This document shows, one piece after another, positions 47,708 to 61,502 of a stretch of 64,000 nt of DNA. Both the position numbers and the translations under genes were made by a program. The stretch spans positions 1 to 64,000 of IMG/VR virus record IMGVR_UViG_3300029915_000016, one strand, 5' to 3'. The first letter of the stretch is position 1, and each line of letters starts with the position of its first letter. This stretch comes from a virus. The notes beneath the pieces are model-generated. The model was not told where the DNA came from, made no database searches, and saw only the letters and a list, made by a program, of their open reading frames with translations.

Positions 47708-47777
47708 GGGACACCTCACATCTCAGTAAACGACGTTTTTATCCTTTGCGATGTATCGGATTGAACAGGAGAGTGCA

Positions 47778-48659
47778 ATGAAAAACAGACGATGGGGCGA
47801 TAACGACAAGTATTGGGGTCCGTTTACATACGCGCATTCGGATAAAGAATACAATCCTTTCGCGGTTATACTTGGATCTGGAGACGAGGAGCATCCGGGG
47901 TGCTATCTCAGGCTTGGTGCATTCCATAGGACGCTGATCTGTTCGCTCCCGCCGATCATTCCACCGTATCGCAGGAAGGTAGTTGCGAAGTTTTGGAACG
48001 AGGATGACATTAAGCGTCTAGGACGCAACTGGTACTACGACGTTCATGAGCGTGAGTACGGATTCTCCTATGCCGCGAGTGGATGTATCGGAGATGGTGG
48101 ATTTCTGCAAGTCTTTCTTGGCCGTCAGACGCACGACAGCAGCAACGAACAGCGGTGGTCATGCTTCACGCCATGGAATAAATGGAATAACTGGCGTCAT
48201 GTGAGGAATAGTTATTACGGTTTGTATGGAGAGTTTTTTGCATCCGAACCACAGCATCGTATCGACTTCACTACGAAGGCAGGAAACGACAAGTACGCGG
48301 AGTGGACGGCGATTGTGGATGCTTGCCCTACGTTTACGTTCGCATTCAATGACTTTGACGGTGAGTTGCTAACCGCCAAAACTCGTATCGAGGAGCGCCA
48401 GTGGGAACTTGGAACTGGATGGTTTAAGTGGCTATCTAATTTCCATAAGCCAATCATTCACCGTTCGCTTGATATTCAATTCTCAGGCGAAACCGGAAAG
48501 CGCAAAGGATCATGGAAGGGTGGCACGGTAGGACATTCTATCGAGATGCTACCCGGAGAACTGCACGAGTCGGCGTTTAAGAGATACTGCAAAGAGCACG
48601 ATATGGTATTCCTTGGCAGGAGCGGAATAGGAGCATTTGACAATTCCCGTAGTGTGTGA
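47778..48659 (+). CDS. hypothetical protein
   Basis: AGGAG RBS; Trp-rich; FSGETGKRKGSWKGG. Confidence 0.7.
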   Translation: MKNRRWGDNDKYWGPFTYAHSDKEYNPFAVILGSGDEEHPGCYLRLGAFHRTLICSLPPIIPPYRRKVVAKFWNEDDIKRLGRNWYYDVHEREYGFSYAASGCIGDGGFLQVFLGRQTHDSSNEQRWSCFTPWNKWNNWRHVRNSYYGLYGEFFASEPQHRIDFTTKAGNDKYAEWTAIVDACPTFTFAFNDFDGELLTAKTRIEERQWELGTGWFKWLSNFHKPIIHRSLDIQFSGETGKRKGSWKGGTVGHSIEMLPGELHESAFKRYCKEHDMVFLGRSGIGAFDNSRSV

Positions 48660-48672
48660 GAGGATTTACCTC

Positions 48673-48744
48673 ATGAAGAACTTGTGCTTATCTCTATCGT
48701 CTTATTGCTCACTCAGTCTGAGTGGACGAGAGGCTATGGGATAA
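48673..48744 (+). CDS. leader peptide 1 (Leu/Ser/Cys/Tyr sensor) of tRNA operon A
   Basis: MKNLCLSLSSYCSLSLSGREAMG; TTGACA at 48637; codons match the downstream tRNAs. Confidence 0.8.
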   Translation: MKNLCLSLSSYCSLSLSGREAMG

Positions 48745-48768
48745 GTCCAAGTTTAGGATTTGTACCAC

Positions 48769-48797
48769 GAGCCTCCAGAAATGGGGGCTTTTGTTTT
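48769..48797 (+). terminator. attenuator terminator of tRNA operon A
   Basis: GAGCCTCCA-GAAA-TGGGGGCTT followed by TTGTTTT. Confidence 0.8.
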
Positions 48798-48799
48798 GT

Positions 48800-48878
48800 G
48801 GGAGAGTACGCCAACGGAAGAGCGTTTGGACTTAAAATCCAAAGGATATGACGGGTTCAAATCCCTCCTCTCCTACCA
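48800..48878 (+). tRNA. trnL: tRNA-Leu(TAA), short variable region
   Basis: Cloverleaf; TTGGA-CT-TAA-AA-TCCAA; CCA. Confidence 0.85.
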
Positions 48879-50038: not shown

Positions 50039-50346
50039 GAAAGCATTATACATCAAATCAAATAAGGCGCATTTTTTCCTTGACAACTCGCAAGGATAGC
50101 GATACGCTTTCTTTGGGTCTGGATGGCTTCGTATCCCGTTCAAGACGGACCCCACAAATGTCTACCAACGGGAGATAGGAGATAGCTTCTCGGTAGCTAT
50201 CTGACTTGGTGGAGTCCTATTCAATACGAAATGGGCCAGAATTTGACGCGGGGAGACGGTATTTATACGTTTCCCCGTTTTCTGTTATACTAGGGGTGTC
50301 GGATGTGTCACCATCCGGCAAAGCCTCATCGTTCGGAGGAACGAAT

Positions 50347-51087
50347 ATGACACCCCTATCCAAAGATACACCTATTACTCGTAAACGCGAAAGAGCATTA
50401 TATTATCGAGAGTATAGGAAGAAAAAAGGTGCAAATCAAAGATCAGAACAAGAAGCCTTGCGTCTAAAAGCATTAGAAGAATACATCAAAAACCCAAACG
50501 TATGCTTGTTTTGCTCAAAAGTAATTGAACCTAAAATAACAGAAAAACTCTCGATAACTAAACGTAAGAGATACTGTGACGTTAAATGCTCAAGTGCGTC
50601 AAGAAAGAGAGAGTGTAAGTGTGTACCATGCATCTACTGCGGTAAACCATTAAAGAGACACCTAAAGAAATTCTGCACGAAAAGCTGCGCGTCTCGGTCA
50701 AGGGGAATCTTGCAATCTATTACGAAAGGCGATCTTTTCTCGAAAAGATCTGGATACCAATCGGCGAGGAGCGCCATACAAAGGGATGCTAGAACTGTGT
50801 ACTTGTGGAGTAAAAGGAAACTGGAGTGTTTAATTTGTGGATACTCGAAGCATGTGGATATAGCGCACATCAAACCTGTTTCAGATTTCGATGATGCGTG
50901 TACTGTCGCTGAGATAAACGCGATGGATAACCTTGTTTCTCTATGTCCTAATCACCATTGGGAATTTGATCACGGTTTTTTGAAATTCAACGCTGGTTGC
51001 TTTGAAGGATCGAATACACGTAAAGTAATCCGAAAACGTGATTACGATCAAATAAACCTATTTCCACTAGCGCAGAATAATTCTTGA
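50347..51087 (+). CDS. HNH endonuclease
   Basis: GGAGGA RBS; CLICG...DIAHIKP...NLVSLCPNHHWEFD. Confidence 0.85.
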   Translation: MTPLSKDTPITRKRERALYYREYRKKKGANQRSEQEALRLKALEEYIKNPNVCLFCSKVIEPKITEKLSITKRKRYCDVKCSSASRKRECKCVPCIYCGKPLKRHLKKFCTKSCASRSRGILQSITKGDLFSKRSGYQSARSAIQRDARTVYLWSKRKLECLICGYSKHVDIAHIKPVSDFDDACTVAEINAMDNLVSLCPNHHWEFDHGFLKFNAGCFEGSNTRKVIRKRDYDQINLFPLAQNNS

Positions 51088-51118
51088 CAACTGTATATAA
51101 TTGCGTTATCGTTTAATT

Positions 51119-51196
51119 CGCGGGGTGGACTGGAGACGGTTCCAGCTTGGTCTCATAAGCCAAATCACGTCGGTTCGATTCCGATTCCCGCAACCA
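51119..51196 (+). tRNA. trnfM: initiator-type tRNA-Met(CAT)
   Basis: CGCGGGG start with C1:A72 mismatch; CT-CAT-AA; own TTGACA at 51084. Confidence 0.85.
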
Positions 51197-51850: not shown

Positions 51851-53090
51851 GTGAATCACCGTCATCTAAATCAGACAGTTTCCGGCTTCAATGGCATCTG
51901 CGTTAGCTAAAGACTTGCGTCCCAACTTCCGTCTTACGTTGCCTCCACCAGCAGTAGCGCCAATCCCTGACGCCAGTATCCGTAAACCTTCGTCACGGAT
52001 ATTCTTCGCCGCATTTATATCGCGGTCATGATGTGTTGAGCAGGATGGGCAGGTCCAAGAACGAACAATTAACGGCATCTTACCATTCTGAAATCCGCAC
52101 TCGGAACAAACTTTGCTTGACGGAAAAAAGCGTCCTATTTTTATGAAAGCCTTACCATCGCGCTCTGCTTTGTACTTGAGAAACAATGTTAGTGTTCCCC
52201 ACCCTACATCTGATACTGCTTTCGCAAGGTTATGGTTAGCTATCATTCCCTTCACATTCAAATCCTCTACGATCACGACTTGGTTCTCATCAATGATCTT
52301 GCGAGAGACTTTGTGAAGGTAATCACGGCGCTGGTTTGTGATATGTTCATGAACTCGTGCAACCTGAATACGTGCTTTGTTGCGACTTGATGAGCCTTTC
52401 TTTTTGCGACTCAAAGATTGCTGCTTACGCTTTAGATTCTTTTCTGACTTGGCAATCCAGCGAGGATTATTAAACTTCGATCCATCGCTAGTAATTGCTA
52501 AATGCGTTAAACCTACGTCTACACCGATTGCCTTCCCTTCGATAGAAATAGGAGGAACAGGAATAGAATCATCGGTAAGAATCGAAGCGTAGTAGTGGCC
52601 GCATGGATTCTTGCTCACCGTGACCGTCTTGATTCGTCCAACAATCTCACGGTGTATGACAGCCTTAACTTTGCCAACTTTAGGAAGATTTATTATACTC
52701 CCGTCTATTTTAACGTGTTGCGGATACTGAATCGACTGTTTTCTATGCTTAGATTTGAATCGTGGATATCTAGCCCTCTTCTCAAAGAAGTTCTGGAACG
52801 CTGCTGCCAAATTACGAATTGATGATTGAAGGACTTGCGCGTATGCGTCTTTCATCCATTCATGTTCTGTTTTCAATTCAGGCAAACGATTCGCCATTGC
52901 AACAAATGTGAGACTTTTTCCGGTTTCCTTGTACACTTTCTGCGTTTCCGCCAAAGCCCAATTCCACGTCCAACGAGCACATCCAAACTGGCATACAAGT
53001 AAATTTTCCTGCTCAAAGGTGGGATAGAGACGAAATTTTGTCGTATTCAACATTTATTTAATCCTACCATGTATACGATTAAATGTCAAT
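51851..53090 (-). mobile_element. TnpB-only IS1341-like element; right end ...GATTCAC at 51851
   Basis: Subterminal hairpin ACTGTC...GACGGT then TTCAC on the minus strand; no tnpA; left end undefined. Confidence 0.6.
51866..53053 (-). CDS. tnpB: TnpB RNA-guided endonuclease (IS200/IS605 family)
   Basis: FRLYP...FGCARWTWN; RuvC GVDVG, IVEDL, DRDINAA; zinc finger. Confidence 0.95.
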   Translation of the reverse strand: MLNTTKFRLYPTFEQENLLVCQFGCARWTWNWALAETQKVYKETGKSLTFVAMANRLPELKTEHEWMKDAYAQVLQSSIRNLAAAFQNFFEKRARYPRFKSKHRKQSIQYPQHVKIDGSIINLPKVGKVKAVIHREIVGRIKTVTVSKNPCGHYYASILTDDSIPVPPISIEGKAIGVDVGLTHLAITSDGSKFNNPRWIAKSEKNLKRKQQSLSRKKKGSSSRNKARIQVARVHEHITNQRRDYLHKVSRKIIDENQVVIVEDLNVKGMIANHNLAKAVSDVGWGTLTLFLKYKAERDGKAFIKIGRFFPSSKVCSECGFQNGKMPLIVRSWTCPSCSTHHDRDINAAKNIRDEGLRILASGIGATAGGGNVRRKLGRKSLANADAIEAGNCLI

Positions 53091-53660: not shown

Positions 53661-53690
53661 TTGACATTTGAAAACGAACAAGGATATAGT
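53661..53690 (+). promoter_or_regulatory. sigma70 promoter of tRNA operon B
   Basis: TTGACA-18 nt-TATAGT; ATG 7 nt downstream. Confidence 0.75.
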
Positions 53691-53697
53691 GAAAAAC

Positions 53698-53772
53698 ATG
53701 ATGACCTTTACCACACATACCGCGACACAAGCACCGACGCAGCCAGCCGGTAATCGCGGAAGTGCAGGATAG
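53698..53772 (+). CDS. leader peptide 2 (Thr/Phe/His/Ala/Gln/Pro/Gly/Asn/Arg sensor) of tRNA operon B
   Basis: MMTFTTHTATQAPTQPAGNRGSAG; codons match the downstream tRNAs. Confidence 0.8.
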   Translation: MMTFTTHTATQAPTQPAGNRGSAG

Positions 53773-53814
53773 GGTCTCAGTAGGATTTTTACTCGCATAG
53801 CGAATAAAACTGAA

Positions 53815-53853
53815 GAGGCCCGGTTCAAACCAACGAATCGGGCCTTAGTGCGT
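53815..53853 (+). terminator. attenuator hairpin of tRNA operon B (weak U-tract)
   Basis: GAGGCCCGGTTC...GAATCGGGCCTT followed by AGTGCGT. Confidence 0.6.
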
Positions 53854-53863
53854 AGGAGTAGCA

Positions 53864-54301
53864 ATGGGGAAAGCGATTCACGTTATTAGCAATGTTGATG
53901 AAGATATGAAGACGGCAGATTGTGCGTTTTGTGGTCGCGTGAAAGTGAAACTGAAAAATAATGGTAAGGGTAGATCAAGGCGGTGGGCATGTACTATCGC
54001 GCAGAAAAAATGGGACGGTGCAAGATGTAAAACAGGAAAACCGCTTCGCAATATGACAGACGAGCAAATGGCTCACTACGTATTCAATCGACACGGAAGT
54101 TGTGATATTTGCGGTAGCGTACCACGCCGAATGTTGAACCGAGATCACTGCCATGTAACAGGAAACCTTCGCGGCTTGCTGTGCTATCGCTGTAATACGC
54201 TGCTAGGAAAATTTGATGACAGCATCGAGAAACTCCGTATAAAGGCAGATATTTTCCTGAAGGCGGCATGTTATCTCGAAAGGAACGATACAAAGTTTTG
54301 A
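53864..54301 (+). CDS. endonuclease VII-family HNH endonuclease
   Basis: CDICG...RDHCHVTGNLRGLLCYRCNTLLG. Confidence 0.85.
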   Translation: MGKAIHVISNVDEDMKTADCAFCGRVKVKLKNNGKGRSRRWACTIAQKKWDGARCKTGKPLRNMTDEQMAHYVFNRHGSCDICGSVPRRMLNRDHCHVTGNLRGLLCYRCNTLLGKFDDSIEKLRIKADIFLKAACYLERNDTKF

Positions 54302-54815: not shown

Positions 54816-54850
54816 TTTCAAGAGAGTCAAGCTACGGATTGAGGTACGTG

Positions 54851-55396
54851 ATGAGCACGTTGATGAAAAAGCCGGTTTTGGTCCTTAACGCCTCGTATGA
54901 GCCGATCAGGATAGTTCCAGCGCGTCGTGCTCTCACGTTGATTTGTAAGGGTGCTGCAATGGTTGAGCAACCTACACGGATAGAAGTCTATCCGGGTATA
55001 ACTCTACCATCTGTAATCCGGCTTAGGACATATCGGCATATTCCTATACGCCTTCAAATTGTCAGTCGCAAGAACATTTATATCCGTGACGGTCATAGGT
55101 GCGGATATTGTGGACAGCAATTCAAAGGTGATGAACTGACGTTAGATCACATTCAACCAAGATCCCGTGGAGGAAAGAACGACTGGTCTAACCTAGTAAC
55201 TTGCTGCCGAAAAGACAACCATCGTAAGGCAGACAGGACGCCAGAGGAGGCAGGAATGAAACTGCTCCGTAAGCCTCTTCCGGCAACAGTTCACACAGGA
55301 CGTGGATTGCTACGTTCCATGGCGCTTGAAGTTGGGGCGTGGGAAAAGTATTTGTATTCCGACTCAAAAGGAGAAACGAAGTTGCAGTTTTCGTAA
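54851..55396 (+). CDS. McrA-like HNH endonuclease
   Basis: VLVLNASYEP; RD..RCGYCG...LTLDHIQPRSRGGKNDWSNLVTCC...N..K. Confidence 0.9.
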   Translation: MSTLMKKPVLVLNASYEPIRIVPARRALTLICKGAAMVEQPTRIEVYPGITLPSVIRLRTYRHIPIRLQIVSRKNIYIRDGHRCGYCGQQFKGDELTLDHIQPRSRGGKNDWSNLVTCCRKDNHRKADRTPEEAGMKLLRKPLPATVHTGRGLLRSMALEVGAWEKYLYSDSKGETKLQFS

Positions 55397-56477: not shown

Positions 56478-56623
56478 AAGCGAGAGCCGGAAGAGTTGGA
56501 TTATCGCCTATGGAGCGGGTTATACGGGTTCGAGTCCCGTCTGGGGAACCAATAACGAATCGACTTCCCCGGTCGTCTAATGGCAGGACGCCTAAACATC
56601 CAGTTCGCTATTTGTTCTCGCTT
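56478..56623 (+). ncRNA. Y RNA-like 1 (YrlA-type, permuted tRNA module)
   Basis: GAGCCG/TTTGTTC stem enclosing T arm, acceptor stem, D arm in permuted order. Confidence 0.8.
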
Positions 56624-56842: not shown

Positions 56843-57322
56843 ATGGGTTTCATAGCCGAAGTTTCAGCCACAGATAGGTTTTGGAGTAAGGTTGATAAAT
56901 CGGCTGGGCATGGTCCAAACGGGGACTGTTGGGTTTGGACTGCACGTAGGAATTTAGATGGCTATGGGCAGTTTCGTCCTTCCTCTTGGAGATCAGGTGG
57001 TAAACTTGTAAGCGCACACGTATTTTCGTATCGCGAGAGTTTTGGCGAGTTTGATGCTGGATTACAAGTCCTGCATCGCTGCGATAATCCGGCTTGCGTT
57101 AGGGCAGAACATTTGTTTGTAGGTACGCAGGGTGACAATGTTCACGACATGATAGCGAAAAATAGATCGGGCCTAAATTTTCTTGGCTCTGATGTGATCG
57201 CTAACATTCTCGCGATGCATGGCAAAGGGATTAAACAGACAGAAATTGCCAAGAACGTTGGGATACACAAGCAATCTGTCTGGAGAATCATTAAGAGGAT
57301 GGCGGTAAAATCCTTGGCGTGA
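56843..57322 (+). CDS. HNH homing endonuclease (HNH_3-like) with C-terminal HTH
   Basis: RFWSKV...CWVWT...GYGQF...AH...VLHRCDNPACVRAEHL..GT..DN. Confidence 0.9.
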   Translation: MGFIAEVSATDRFWSKVDKSAGHGPNGDCWVWTARRNLDGYGQFRPSSWRSGGKLVSAHVFSYRESFGEFDAGLQVLHRCDNPACVRAEHLFVGTQGDNVHDMIAKNRSGLNFLGSDVIANILAMHGKGIKQTEIAKNVGIHKQSVWRIIKRMAVKSLA

Positions 57323-57407: not shown

Positions 57408-57550
57408 AAGTGCGAGTCGAAAGAAGTTGATTATCTCAACATGAATGTCATGGGTTCGATTCCCATCGTCGTAGTAATACGATGTAGCTCAGTTGGTAGA
57501 GCGTCTGGATGCCGAAAGGCGTATTCGACTTCAACCATTTATTCGCACTT
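57408..57550 (+). ncRNA. Y RNA-like 5 (classic YrlA architecture)
   Basis: GAGTCG/TTTATTC stem; T arm, GTAA-closed acceptor stem, D arm TAGCTCAGTTGGTAGAGC. Confidence 0.85.
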
Positions 57551-57807: not shown

Positions 57808-59493
57808 ATGAAGAACTATATCACCAATGTAATTGATCCATCCACCACGCCTCAGACTGAGGCACTTCCAAACAAAAACCAAGTGAAGAACTCCGCTGGC
57901 GGATTCGTGTTTGCTGTGACGCCATGGACCCGGCTTGAGAGGTTCCTTGTACTGGGAACTGAGGGCGGATCATACTACGCATCAGAGCGCGATCTGACCA
58001 AGACCAACATCGATGGCCTCAAGTCTGCTTTGGCTGAGGATGGCATCCGGTTTGTCAACACGGTTGCCCAAATCAGTCATGCTGGCCGTGCGCCGAAGAA
58101 TGATCCTGCGTTGTTTGCATTGGCTTTGGCTGTTGCCGACAAGCGCAAGGATGTATCCGCATACGCCCTGAGCAAGCTGTCAGACGTGGCGAGAATTCCC
58201 ACACACCTGTTTTCCTTTGCACAGTACGTGCAGAGCCTACGGGGTTGGGGAAGGGCGCTGCGTGGTGGAGTGGCTGATTGGTATCTGTCTAAGCCTGCTG
58301 ACAAGTTGGCTTACCAACTTGCAAAGTACCAGTCGCGTAACGGATGGTCAAACGCAGACCTTTTGCGCCTGAGTCATGCCAACCCTGAGTTGCAGCCTGA
58401 CCATAAGATTCTTTTGAATTGGGCTGTGAAGGGATGGGAGTCTGTTGGTGACGATCCTCATCCGTCAAAGGCTGTTCTTCCGGTGTGGGCATTTGAAAAG
58501 GCAAAGCGCCTCACTCCTCAAACGGGAATCAAGGAACTGGTTAGTCTCATTGCGGATTACGATCTTCCGCGTGAGTGCATTCCTACCGAGTTCTTGTCTC
58601 ATATTGAGGTATGGGATGCATTGCTTCAGAAGATGCCAATGACGGCCATGATTCGCAACCTTGGAAAGATGACTTCCATCGGACTAGTCTCGCCAAACAG
58701 TGAGGCGGCAAAGATGGTAGGAAAGCGCCTTGAGGACGCAGAACTGCTCCACAAGGCACGGATTCATCCTATCTCTGTGCTGATGGCACAATCTGTCTAC
58801 AAGTGCGGTCATGGACTCAAAGGCAACTTGTCATGGTCTCCTGTACCGCGTGTTGTAAACGCTCTAGAGAAGGCTTTCTATGCTTCTTTTGCCAACGCAC
58901 CAAAGACCGGAAAGAGGTTCTACATCGGCCTTGACGTTTCCGGTTCGATGGGAAGCGGATATGTTGCCGGAAGTCAATTGACTCCTCGTGAGGCTGCTGC
59001 TGCTATGGCAATGGTAACCATGAAGACGGAGGACGAGTATTACATCGCTGGATTCACGAACGGCACATCCCGCTCTGCATGGTCTAGCCAAGGATATGGC
59101 TCTGGTGTCACGAAGTTGGAATTGACTCCTGATATGACTTTGAAAGCTGCTTGCCGGTACACTTCTGATTTGCCTTTCGGTGGAACAGACTGCGCTTTGC
59201 CAATGATCGATGCTTTGGAGAAGAAGATCCCTGCGGACGTGTTCATGGTCATCACTGACTCTGAAACGTGGGCAGGAACCAAGCACCCAACCGTTGCTTT
59301 GCAGGAATACCGCAACAAGATGAAGATCGACGCCAAGTTGATCGTCATGGGAATGGTATCGAACGAGTTCACGATTGCCGATCCTACCGATGCGGGACAG
59401 ATGGACGTGGTTGGATTCGATGCGTCCGTTCCACAGGTCATCGCTCAGTTCATCGGCGTGGATGAGCCTCTGGCTGTTGAAACAGACGACTAA
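57808..59493 (+). CDS. rsr: Ro60 (TROVE + vWA) RNA-binding protein
   Basis: QVKNSAGGFVF, RLERFLVLGTEGGSYY, KYQSRNGWS..DLLRLSH, MPMTAMIRNLGKMT, vWA DVSGSM, GGTDC, TDSETW. Confidence 0.95.
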   Translation: MKNYITNVIDPSTTPQTEALPNKNQVKNSAGGFVFAVTPWTRLERFLVLGTEGGSYYASERDLTKTNIDGLKSALAEDGIRFVNTVAQISHAGRAPKNDPALFALALAVADKRKDVSAYALSKLSDVARIPTHLFSFAQYVQSLRGWGRALRGGVADWYLSKPADKLAYQLAKYQSRNGWSNADLLRLSHANPELQPDHKILLNWAVKGWESVGDDPHPSKAVLPVWAFEKAKRLTPQTGIKELVSLIADYDLPRECIPTEFLSHIEVWDALLQKMPMTAMIRNLGKMTSIGLVSPNSEAAKMVGKRLEDAELLHKARIHPISVLMAQSVYKCGHGLKGNLSWSPVPRVVNALEKAFYASFANAPKTGKRFYIGLDVSGSMGSGYVAGSQLTPREAAAAMAMVTMKTEDEYYIAGFTNGTSRSAWSSQGYGSGVTKLELTPDMTLKAACRYTSDLPFGGTDCALPMIDALEKKIPADVFMVITDSETWAGTKHPTVALQEYRNKMKIDAKLIVMGMVSNEFTIADPTDAGQMDVVGFDASVPQVIAQFIGVDEPLAVETDD

Positions 59494-59557: not shown

Positions 59558-59881
59558 ATGTATATCGTAGCTCTAATCTGGATGCACTTTGTATCTGATT
59601 TCGTCCTACAATCGGACAAGATGGCGATCAATAAGTCAAAGGATAACCGTTGGCTCTTCTTTCACTGCCTTGTGTACTCTACACCATTCTTTGTCTTTGG
59701 ATGGAAGTTTGGATGCGTCACACTCCTATTCCATTTCGTGACAGACTACTTCACATCTCGTGGAACGTCCTACTTGTGGAAGAAAGAGATGCGCCACTGG
59801 TTCTTCACTTTAATCGGCTTCGATCAAGCGATCCATCTGACGACATTATTTTTCACGTACCGATTTTTATGCTTGCGTTAG
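59558..59881 (+). CDS. DUF3307-like membrane protein
   Basis: HFVSDFVLQ...H...H...D...GFDQAIH. Confidence 0.8.
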   Translation: MYIVALIWMHFVSDFVLQSDKMAINKSKDNRWLFFHCLVYSTPFFVFGWKFGCVTLLFHFVTDYFTSRGTSYLWKKEMRHWFFTLIGFDQAIHLTTLFFTYRFLCLR

Positions 59882-59901
59882 GACTCGAAGTGGTGTACAT
59901 T
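59873..59901 (+). promoter_or_regulatory. putative promoter of tRNA operon C
   Basis: TTGCGT-17 nt-TACATT. Confidence 0.5.
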
Positions 59902-59949
59902 GATTTTACACCGCAGAAGATCGTGCAGTCGCAGTCGGAAGGATTGAAT

Positions 59950-60024
59950 ATGCAGATCAGGACCAAATCCGTGAGATCCATAACCATGACCGGGAAGCGG
60001 GTCATTTGGGGAACTTGCGTATGA
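59950..60024 (+). CDS. leader peptide 3 (Ile/Arg/Thr/Lys/Val/Met/Gly/Trp sensor) of tRNA operon C
   Basis: GGAAGGA RBS; MQIRTKSVRSITMTGKRVIWGTCV; codons match the downstream tRNAs. Confidence 0.8.
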   Translation: MQIRTKSVRSITMTGKRVIWGTCV

Positions 60025-60049
60025 GGGTCTGAGTGCATTTGTGGTACAC

Positions 60050-60080
60050 AGACCTTCGCCTAGAGCGAGGGTTTTTTGTT
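60050..60080 (+). terminator. attenuator terminator of tRNA operon C
   Basis: ACCTTCGC-CTAGA-GCGAGGGT followed by TTTTTGTT. Confidence 0.8.
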
Positions 60081-60096
60081 GGAGTTCTTTGACAAT

Positions 60097-60170
60097 AGGG
60101 GATTAGTCTAATGGCAAAACGTCTGCCTCCAGAGCAGAATTTACGGGTTCGAGTCCTGTATCCCCTGCCA
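60097..60170 (+). tRNA. trnW: tRNA-Trp(CCA)
   Basis: TCTGC-CT-CCA-GA-GCAGA; GCCA. Confidence 0.9.
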
Positions 60171-60175
60171 GATTT

Positions 60176-60244
60176 GGCACGTATCCAAGGCGGAAAGCGG
60201 CTCTCATAAAGCCGTAAACTGGTTCGAGTCCAGACGTGCTACCA
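60176..60244 (+). tRNA. tRNA-Met or Ile2 (CAT), reduced D arm
   Basis: CGGCT-CT-CAT-AA-AGCCG; ACCA; 69 nt. Confidence 0.75.
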
Positions 60245-60305
60245 AGTTCACGGCGGTTTAAACCTAAACCGATGGCGCAACACCATCCTGCCGTGATTAG
60301 TTTTT

Positions 60306-60383
60306 GGGGGTGTAGCTAGTGTTGGCACCAGCAGTCTCCTTATAAGAGACCGTCCGAAGGTTCGATTCCTTCCACCCCTACCA
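60306..60383 (+). tRNA. trnI: tRNA-Ile(TAT)
   Basis: GTCTC-CT-TAT-AA-GAGAC; ACCA. Confidence 0.85.
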
Positions 60384-60387
60384 TAGT

Positions 60388-60474
60388 GGGACTGTGGCCT
60401 AGTCAGGTTTTGGGCACCCGGCTCTTACCCGGCGCGGAAACGCAACGTAGGTTCAAATCCTACCAGTCCCACCA
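60388..60474 (+). tRNA. trnK: tRNA-Lys(CTT) with long variable arm
   Basis: CCGG-CT-CTT-AC-CCGG; GCG-GAAA-CGC arm. Confidence 0.8.
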
Positions 60475-60485
60475 ACACTTTTAAC

Positions 60486-60561
60486 GGGTTTGTCCTCCAA
60501 CGTCTAGGAAACTCGCCTTTTAAGCGAAGCAATGTGGGTTAGAGTCCCACCAAACCCACCA
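60486..60561 (+). tRNA. trnK: tRNA-Lys(TTT)
   Basis: TCGC-CT-TTT-AA-GCGA; ACCA. Confidence 0.85.
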
Positions 60562-60562
60562 T

Positions 60563-60640
60563 GCACTCGTACCGGCCTCGCCTTCTAAGCGAGTTCACCG
60601 TAACTGGAATATGCGAGTTCGACTCTCGCCGAGTGCCCCA
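60563..60640 (+). tRNA. trnR: tRNA-Arg(TCT) lacking a canonical D arm
   Basis: Perfect acceptor, anticodon and T stems; 7-nt connector in place of the D arm. Confidence 0.75.
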
Positions 60641-60645
60641 GTTTT

Positions 60646-60722
60646 GCCGCTGTATCTCCCCTGCCTCCTAAGCAGGTAAGAGTAAGTGGATGATGACGGT
60701 TCGAGTCCGTCCAGCGGTTCCA
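60646..60722 (+). tRNA. trnR: tRNA-Arg(CCT) lacking a canonical D arm
   Basis: CCTGC-CT-CCT-AA-GCAGG; same architecture as its neighbour. Confidence 0.75.
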
Positions 60723-60737
60723 TGAGGGAGAAGTGAA

Positions 60738-61013
60738 ATGCGAAAGTCATCATTAACCGATCCATTGACGGACGAGGAAGTAGACGCAGCAAACGCCGAT
60801 CCTAGCGACATGTGGATTCATGTGCGGTGCAAGGATTGTGGGGATGTTGAGTGTTGCTTCAACCGGACAGTAACGTCATGGCAACGTCGGTGTTTTCCTT
60901 GCCAGATGGGTTGGAAGCCGATGAAGAGCGTTAAGAAGATCGCAGAGGTCAACGGATTCAAGCCAGTTCCTATGCGACAACAGGAAGATACGTTTGATCG
61001 TGAAACACGATGA
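60738..61013 (+). CDS. Cys-rich hypothetical protein
   Basis: GGGAG RBS; CKDC...CFPC. Confidence 0.6.
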   Translation: MRKSSLTDPLTDEEVDAANADPSDMWIHVRCKDCGDVECCFNRTVTSWQRRCFPCQMGWKPMKSVKKIAEVNGFKPVPMRQQEDTFDRETR

Positions 61014-61020
61014 ACTTTTT

Positions 61021-61095
61021 GCAGGCGTGGTGAAACGGAGATCACAAAGCCCCCCGAAGGCTTAATTCTCGGTTCGAATCCGAGCGCTTGTACCA
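61021..61095 (+). tRNA. trnR: tRNA-Arg(CCG), C33
   Basis: AAGCC-CC-CCG-AA-GGCTT. Confidence 0.85.
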
Positions 61096-61103
61096 TAGTT
61101 TTT

Positions 61104-61178
61104 GCCCCGCTCGTCTAAAGGTAAAGACCGAAGTCCTACAAACTTCAGATCGGCGTTCAATTCGTCGGTGGGGCACCA
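61104..61178 (+). tRNA. trnV: tRNA-Val(TAC), C33
   Basis: GAAGT-CC-TAC-AA-ACTTC. Confidence 0.85.
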
Positions 61179-61257
61179 AGTTCGGAGTCTGAGGGTTGGT
61201 AGCCCTTGGAGGTTACAACGCACAGATCGAACACCTGTGACTCTGGGATGTGTAAAT

Positions 61258-61331
61258 GTCGATGTAGCACAGTGGCAGTGCCATTGCTCGGTAAGCAATA
61301 GACCCGCGTTCGATTCGCGGCATCGGCTCCA
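61258..61331 (+). tRNA. trnT: tRNA-Thr(GGT), C33
   Basis: ATTGC-TC-GGT-AA-GCAAT. Confidence 0.85.
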
Positions 61332-61332
61332 T

Positions 61333-61410
61333 GGCGGTCTAGCTCACATTGAGAAGAGCGTTCCCCTGATAAGGGAGAGGCACCCAGTTCAATTCTGGGG
61401 ACCGCCACCA
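61333..61410 (+). tRNA. trnI: tRNA-Ile(GAT)
   Basis: TTCCC-CT-GAT-AA-GGGAG. Confidence 0.9.
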
Positions 61411-61418
61411 TACGTTGT

Positions 61419-61502
61419 GCGGGTCTTGAGTAATTGGTTGCTCAGTGGTCCTCCAAACCACCGCCGTAAGGCATACGGGTTCGACCCCCGTGACCCGCTC
61501 CA
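61419..61502 (+). tRNA. trnG: tRNA-Gly(TCC), C33, long variable arm
   Basis: GTGGT-CC-TCC-AA-ACCAC; TCCA. Confidence 0.85.

Follow-up and report, generated by a model that had tools for sequence, protein, structure and literature searches.

The stretch of DNA analysed here (the window) comprises the first 64 kb of an 82,612-bp virus record. It encodes phage structural genes and its DNA recurs across many peat metagenomes. DNA and protein searches revealed no cultured relatives among the INPHARED phages; the terminase is 27% identical to the terminase of Tunturiibacter phages. Between 48.8 and 61.5 kb, ARAGORN, Rfam and folds together yielded 37 tRNA-like genes, all on the plus strand. They are arranged in operon A (nine tRNA genes: three for Leu, one for Cys, four for Ser and one for Tyr), operon B (12 tRNA genes) and operon C (12 tRNA genes, 60097-61502) and, separate from these three, in a small Asp-Glu-Glu tRNA group and a lone CAT tRNA gene. 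Operon C starts with genes for tRNAs Trp CCA (60097-60170), CAT (60175-60243), Ile TAT (60306-60383), Lys CTT (60388-60474), Lys TTT (60486-60561), Arg TCT (60563-60640) and Arg CCT (60645-60722). It is then interrupted by an ORF for a Cys-rich protein of 91 aa (60738-61013, plus strand), for which no Pfam family was found, and continues with Arg CCG (61021-61095), Val TAC (61104-61178), Thr GGT (61258-61331), Ile GAT (61333-61410) and Gly TCC (61419-61502).

Nine of the 12 operon C tRNAs were called by ARAGORN at default settings, and Lys-TTT at 60486 was obtained from Rfam and from ARAGORN at a lower threshold. ARAGORN run at low threshold or with introns mostly returned noise, and the output of a custom mini tRNA finder, which proved too strict, was left out. 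Arg-TCT (60563) and Arg-CCT (60645) were missed in the window by Rfam and default ARAGORN and were assigned from their folds as D-arm-poor, non-canonical tRNAs with an acceptor stem, CTTCTAA and CTCCTAA anticodon loops, respectively, and a T arm; their homologues in related phages are called by ARAGORN -mt. These two tRNAs (60563-60722), which have a long extra region and no normal D arm, are conserved in two IMG/VR phages, G001 and G002, that are introduced below, and in metagenome relatives. A search with the exact tRNA-Arg(CCT) pattern matched only G001 and G002. Further odd tRNAs in the window are Lys-CTT with 87 nt, Gly-TCC with 84 nt and an Ala-TGC with C33. The spacers at 60244-60305 and 61179-61257 in operon C are structured without being tRNAs, and the latter has exact blocks of 18-19 nt (AGGTTACAACGCACAGAT, ACCTGTGACTCTGGGATGT) in common with G002.

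Operon C is preceded by a short ORF on the same strand, leader C (59950-60024), that consists of 24 codons and a TGA stop, encodes the peptide MQIRTKSVRSITMTGKRVIWGTCV and is located in the region immediately 3' of the stop codon of a DUF3307 gene. A candidate promoter (59873-59901) with the -35 element TTGCGT (59873-59878), a 17-nt spacer and the -10 element TACATT (59896-59901) overlaps the DUF3307 stop. It is absent from the list returned by our consensus scan, whose entries match at 8-9 of 12 positions; related phages carry TTGCAT or TTGCAA, 17 nt and TAnnnT at the homologous position. The Shine-Dalgarno-like sequence GGAAGGA (59937-59943) lies 6 nt 5' of the ATG at 59950. In the relatives, the start is either preceded by AAGGA at a distance of 5-8 nt, or the start codon follows 6-7 nt after the -10 element in a leaderless layout. 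The ATG with its GGAAGGA, the starts of the homologues and indels that keep the frame thus provide leader C with a credible start. An intrinsic terminator, described below, lies between leader C and the tRNA-Trp gene. Between its U-run and tRNA-Trp we noted a conserved box, TCTTTGACAA (60086-60095, plus strand), with the consensus TCTTTGAMAA in nearly all leader C homologues. The box resembles a -35 element and could be a processing or protein-binding site. TTGACA at 60089-60094 was considered as part of a second promoter and rejected because there is no -10 element at usable distance: it would fall inside tRNA-Trp.

An earlier note on this DNA had described the leader as rich in rare codons and as matching all 12 tRNAs of operon C. 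The ORF reads exactly as quoted there, and for each of the 12 anticodons we indeed found an exact Watson-Crick codon in the leader. The codon content is also as described, with all three Ile codons, both Lys codons, AGA, AGG and CGG, TGG and an internal ATG as well as codons for Val (GTG, GTC, GTA), Thr (ACC, ACT) and Gly (GGG, GGA). With standard wobble rules, 18 of 23 codons (78%) belong to the operon C set. CAG, TCC (twice) and TGC for Gln, Ser and Cys are off-set, just as had been noted, and GTC is a fifth off-set codon that would be matched only if U34 of the Val tRNA reads C. The term rare needs restriction: judged by the phage's own usage, it applies to AGG (9 per 1000) and CGG (6 per 1000) but not to ATA (35 per 1000) and AGA (21 per 1000). 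Each operon C tRNA is sampled by only one to three leader codons, and every one of them has at least one codon within leader codons 3-20.

In ORFs simulated with the phage's own codon usage, coverage of 12 out of 12 tRNAs had a probability of 6.3e-5 and at least 18 in-set codons out of 23 a probability of 1e-6, with 28.5% in-set codons expected. Among some 70,000 stop-free windows of 23 codons in the six frames of the 82.6-kb genome, full coverage of set C was confined to the leader, where five overlapping windows achieve it, and to a single locus elsewhere. These figures, from 6e-5 down to 1e-6, and the single further locus in the genome-wide null make it very improbable that leader C arose by chance as an open frame within the 3' UTR of the DUF3307 gene, whose terminator the hairpin would then be. 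The position directly 3' of the DUF3307 stop would suit such an accident, as would the outcome of consensus scans of the 18-kb region, in which promoters and terminators were not overrepresented. More than 12 diverged relatives nonetheless share the frame, the start signals and the codon set; some of them (L057 and L059) lack DUF3307 upstream of leader C and have a tRNA there instead, and analogous elements are present at operons A and B.

Leader A (48673-48744, MKNLCLSLSSYCSLSLSGREAMG) covers nine of nine and leader B (53698-53772, MMTFTTHTATQAPTQPAGNRGSAG) 12 of 12 tRNAs of the respective operon. When each of the three leaders was compared with each of the three operons, the diagonal of the matrix read 9/9, 12/12 and 12/12, while all off-diagonal combinations amounted to one to five tRNAs. 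Leader C in particular covers two of the nine tRNAs of operon A, two of the 12 of operon B and none of the three Asp/Glu tRNAs. This diagonal excludes general codon bias of the phage as the cause. Leaders A and B, situated in regions that span 48637-48800 and 53661-53860, are of the same design as leader C without being homologous to it. They start 7 nt after the -10 element (TTGACA-17-GAGGAT; TTGACA-18-TATAGT) and thus have a leaderless layout. An ORF for an endonuclease VII is situated between leader B and the first tRNA of its operon, and the hairpin of leader B lacks a good U-run. In front of the Asp-Glu-Glu cluster, no Asp/Glu-rich leader was found in the window or in G001.

The antiterminator 5' arm (region 2, 60023-60036, plus strand), composed of GAGGGTCTG and an inner helix GTGC, begins inside the TGA stop codon of leader C. 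It is followed by region 3 (60044-60059, plus strand; GTAC.A.CAGACCTTCGC), which is predicted to pair with either region 2 or region 4, and by the intrinsic terminator (60050-60077, plus strand) with the stem AGACCTTCGC/GCGAGGGTTT and the loop CTAGA. Both elements of the switch proposed earlier were recovered in place. The U-tailed terminator consists of a hairpin at 60050-60074 and a run of six T at 60072-60077, and the two arms, GAGGGTCTG at 60023-60031 and CAGACCTTC at 60049-60057, form a helix in the minimum free energy (MFE) structure of a leader truncated from its 5' end. In the MFE structure of the whole leader, the G-rich segment at the stop is engaged by the 5' coding part, and the terminator is present. 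When folding begins at 60015, this segment pairs with the terminator 5' arm (60023-60036/60044-60057) and the terminator is gone. In the full-length MFE of the window, the 5' part of the ORF pairs with region 2, a putative anti-antiterminator (1:2) that would bring about termination without translation; the terminator probability is 0.91.

A partition-function model with a mask for the ribosome gave, for the window, a terminator probability of 0.91 without a ribosome, 0.89 with a ribosome at the stop codon and 0.12 or less for stalls at codons 1-14. For several relatives (L029, L030), the same equilibrium model favoured the terminator at any ribosome position. As it always favours the very stable terminator of these relatives, any switch there must be kinetic, as in trp. 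From the geometry of the ribosome footprint we infer that a ribosome with its A site at codon 20 or earlier leaves the sequence from 60023 onward free, and the size of the footprint implies that a ribosome at the stop codon would mask the antiterminator.

A perfect terminator stem of at least 7 bp followed by at least five T within 8 nt is present in 13 of 13 homologues, and the stem sequences differ. When region 4 was left out, the terminator 5' arm paired with a G-run at or just before the stop in all 13, with an inner antiterminator helix of different sequence in each of them. In all eight short-form homologues, the entire leader offers no better complement to region 3 than one that starts within 3 nt of the stop. 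The consensus structure computed by RNAalifold was the antiterminator when region 4 was omitted and the terminator when it was included, the latter with compensatory changes in six of eight pairs. Shuffle z-scores for the energy of the antiterminator were modest (-0.3 to -4.0) and we therefore relied on positional conservation and RNAalifold instead. Column-wise pair counts were left out because MAFFT misregisters the hairpins. At the level of sequence, leader C thus combines an enrichment of regulatory codons with a suitably placed terminator and an antiterminator that is mutually exclusive with it.

The two related phages, G001 and G002 (134-138 kb), were found in IMG/VR by a search with the neighbouring DUF3307 protein. 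Both contain operons A, B and C in the same order, and each operon is equipped with a homologous leader in which the codon set is kept and the order is shuffled. Leader A, for example, reads ...TTA TCT CTA TCG TCT TAT TGC TCA... in the window and ...CTC AGT TCG CTC TCC TCG TAT AGC TCA TTA... in G001, and in G002 the codons of leader C are rearranged over its entire length. The window and G001 share a 28-nt core of leader C (59986-60013, plus strand, ATGACCGGGAAGCGGGTCATTTGGGGAA), which is the second-longest exact match between them in 20 kb and exceeds those in nearly all tRNAs. This core contains an internal hairpin (ATGACC/GGTCAT) that is present in the MFE structure and may act as a pause hairpin or as an alternative pairing partner.

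A metagenome scan based on the core returned 16 contigs from peat or soil with about 12 distinct leader C variants. In this collection the core is invariant by design of the search, whereas the N-terminal half is variable. One relative, L030, was found independently via the neighbouring gene and not via the leader motif, and its leader uses the same codons in another arrangement. All of the metagenome contigs have a frame that stays open from the start codon onward, and all indels among the 13 leader C homologues are multiples of three. AAA plus AAG, ATA plus ATY, CGG plus AGR, TGG and an internal ATG are kept in 14 of 14 leader C variants, and 60-78% of the codons of each variant are in-set, as compared to the 28.5% expected. 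In every homologue with enough sequence, the leader is followed by a GC hairpin with a U-run and then by tRNA-Trp. Codon and tRNA content covary imperfectly among the relatives: AGG is missing from the leaders of L030, L059 and L061 despite an encoded Arg-CCT, L057 and L058 keep one ACC in the leader while Thr-GGT is missing from the cluster, and L061, L064 and L071 keep ATA while Ile-TAT was not detected.

A search for similar loci via Ro60 led to distant phages only, the richest of which (L023, 41 tRNAs) is devoid of codon-matched leaders, so the design is not universal. The corresponding search via Acb3 yielded no matches. A 338-nt contig from a peat metatranscriptome, originating from a related phage, runs from the leader core across the position of the terminator to tRNA-Trp and beyond. 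It fits read-through transcripts, which is only a hint, as contigs show no transcript ends and may stem from DNA carry-over. The contigs from RNA run X24 cover six of 30 bins only and are uninformative with regard to transcript ends or levels.

The high conservation of the 28-nt core, which surpasses that of most tRNAs, the partial conservation of the peptide and the -35-like TTGACA in the conserved box TCTTTGACAA 3' of the terminator would also be compatible with a conserved micropeptide or with a terminated leader that acts as an sRNA in trans. In that case, the hairpin would simply terminate transcription of this small gene, and read-through or another promoter would supply the tRNAs. We regard this as improbable, since the homologues shuffle the order of the codons and keep the set, the non-homologous leaders A and B are equally well matched to their tRNAs, the antiterminator overlapping the stop is conserved and TTGACA has no usable -10 element outside of tRNA-Trp.

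The attenuator that had been proposed in the earlier note is supported by the combination of promoter and start signal, an ORF with 78% in-set codons, a terminator and an antiterminator that overlaps the stop codon, all of it conserved, and also by the operon-specific match and by the recurrence of the design at two non-homologous leaders and in more than 12 diverged relatives. With a probability of roughly 70%, we consider leader C to be a trp-type ribosome-mediated transcription attenuator that senses the supply of the operon's own tRNAs, and the phage would probably make the operon C tRNAs only when ribosomes read the leader codons slowly. Transcription would start from the promoter at 59873-59901, and a ribosome would translate the 24-codon leader. 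If decoding is fast, the ribosome would reach the TGA and cover the G-rich arm (60023-60036), the terminator would form and RNA polymerase would stop before tRNA-Trp. A shortage of any one of the 12 tRNA species would cause the ribosome to pause at the cognate codon somewhere within codons 3-20 and leave the arm free to pair with CAGACCTTC, such that no terminator forms and the 12 tRNA genes are transcribed. The result would be a negative feedback by which the supply of each tRNA block follows demand. That the leader is translated, that its translation is coupled to RNA polymerase and that read-through responds to a lack of tRNAs is predicted here from the arrangement of the sequence elements. 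Sensitivity to single tRNA species is uncertain, as each is represented by one to three codons and not by runs as in his and trp.

Attenuation by leader peptides is a textbook mechanism for genes of amino acid biosynthesis and for aminoacyl-tRNA synthetase genes. We know of no case in which it acts on tRNA genes, and to our knowledge the regulation of phage tRNA arrays is largely unknown. A literature search of incomplete coverage brought up no account of leader-peptide control of tRNA genes. Compared with the attenuators known to us, the output in the form of tRNA genes and the sampling of 12 isoacceptors would be new. Leader C resembles trpL and hisL of E. coli and Salmonella in that a short translated leader with regulatory codons has its stop adjoining the antiterminator 5' arm and is followed by a competing intrinsic terminator. 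The geometry is likewise trpL-like: the stop occupies leader nt 73-75, and regions 2, 3 and 4 span nt 74-87, 95-110 and 116-125, respectively. It differs from trpL and hisL in that it is phage-encoded and that tRNA genes and not biosynthetic enzymes are the output. Twelve tRNA species are sampled one to three times each, in contrast to the runs of a single codon in trpL and hisL; the most plausible signal is the abundance of tRNAs as opposed to the supply of amino acids, and many relatives of leader C feature a leaderless start.

In the multivalent attenuators of ilvGMEDA, ilvBN and thr, one leader samples several amino acids and shortage of any of them opens the operon. There, however, two to three amino acids that share a pathway are monitored, as opposed to nine amino acids and 12 isoacceptors in leader C, where synonymous codons fit individual anticodons. 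Attenuation of genes for the decoding machinery by the state of their own tRNA is established for pheST with its pheM leader and for the T-box leaders of aminoacyl-tRNA synthetase genes. These systems regulate synthetases, while leader C would regulate tRNA genes, and T-box RNA binds tRNA directly without involvement of a ribosome. Neither a T-box nor any other cis-regulatory Rfam family was found between 46000 and 64000 at E ≤ 1, and leader C thus does not qualify as a T-box element.

The small number of codons per tRNA in leader C and the imperfect covariation of codons and tRNAs among relatives leave room for a more general sensor of translation capacity. Any slowing of ribosomes, be it by host shut-off, ribosome-targeting toxins or starvation, would then open the operon, and the codon match would merely keep the leader readable once the phage tRNAs are present. 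A cellular example would be the trn operon of Anabaena sp. PCC 7120, a supernumerary, horizontally mobile tRNA array that is described as silent until translation is impaired (PMC8421152, PMC10272220) and as induced by general translational stress (PMC10272220). Its control is described as exerted on transcription by the protein repressor TrcR and not by a leader peptide and a terminator (PMC10272220). A general sensor could do without codon sets tailored to each operon, yet each of the three leaders of this genome fits its own operon and not the others, and the match extends to sets of isoacceptors (AAA and AAG; AGA, AGG and CGG; ATA and ATY). We therefore consider a general sensor unlikely. 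An attenuator that senses the operon's own tRNAs would furthermore agree with the model by Elf and Ehrenberg, according to which sensitive attenuators have a high fraction of low-usage regulatory codons (PMC1183508); the high fraction of such codons in leader C fits this design rule.

Extended to all three operons, the tRNA-sensing attenuator leads to a more tentative picture, for which we see somewhat less than even odds. The phage may survey the tRNA pool in a modular manner, with each operon gated by a leader that serves as its own codon 'checklist' and transcribed only when a member species becomes limiting. The attenuators would then be inducible counter-defence sensors with isoacceptor resolution. 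Possible triggers would be a mismatch with the host tRNA pool, host shut-off or cleavage by anticodon nucleases, the link to the latter being speculation. A leader spelled in precisely those codons that the tRNAs behind it read would sense decoding capacity directly and calibrate itself. Such a sensor would account for the way in which phages rich in tRNA genes keep from making tRNAs needlessly, establish a testable link to host defences that target tRNAs and yield compact natural modules from which reporters of individual tRNA pools could be built. The leader C family from the window, G001, G002 and the 16 metagenome contigs offers material for mutational tests.

The tRNA region of the window harbors further genes and elements. 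The lone CAT tRNA (51084-51196) has a promoter of its own (TTGACA-17-TATCGT) and a C1xA72 mismatch reminiscent of initiator tRNA, and it shares with G001 a stretch of 32 identical nt, longer than any other exact match in the 20-kb region. In the 138-kb phage G001, a permuted tmRNA (L052 10788-11173; Rfam RF04321, 75 bits) is located between the lone CAT tRNA and the Asp tRNA; no equivalent match was found in the window. The genes interspersed between the tRNAs encode homing-endonuclease-like proteins, TnpB, an Acb3-like protein and Ro60. The gene for TnpB (IS605 OrfB; 51866-53053, minus strand) lies between the lone CAT tRNA and the Asp/Glu tRNAs, and the gene for the Acb3-like CBASS inhibitor (47751-48659, plus strand) is situated directly 5' of attenuator A. 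The gene for the Ro60/TROVE protein (57808-59493) is preceded by Y-RNA-like elements; Rfam matches to YrlA at 57417-57531 (41 bits) and 56497-56621 (24 bits) both remain below the gathering threshold. ORFs resembling endonuclease VII or HNH homing endonucleases are found among the tRNA genes at 50206-51087, 53864-54301, 54839-55396 and 56843-57322. Such ORFs are placed differently in the window, in G001, in G002 and in the metagenome relatives, suggesting that they are mobile and have inserted into the tRNA operons.
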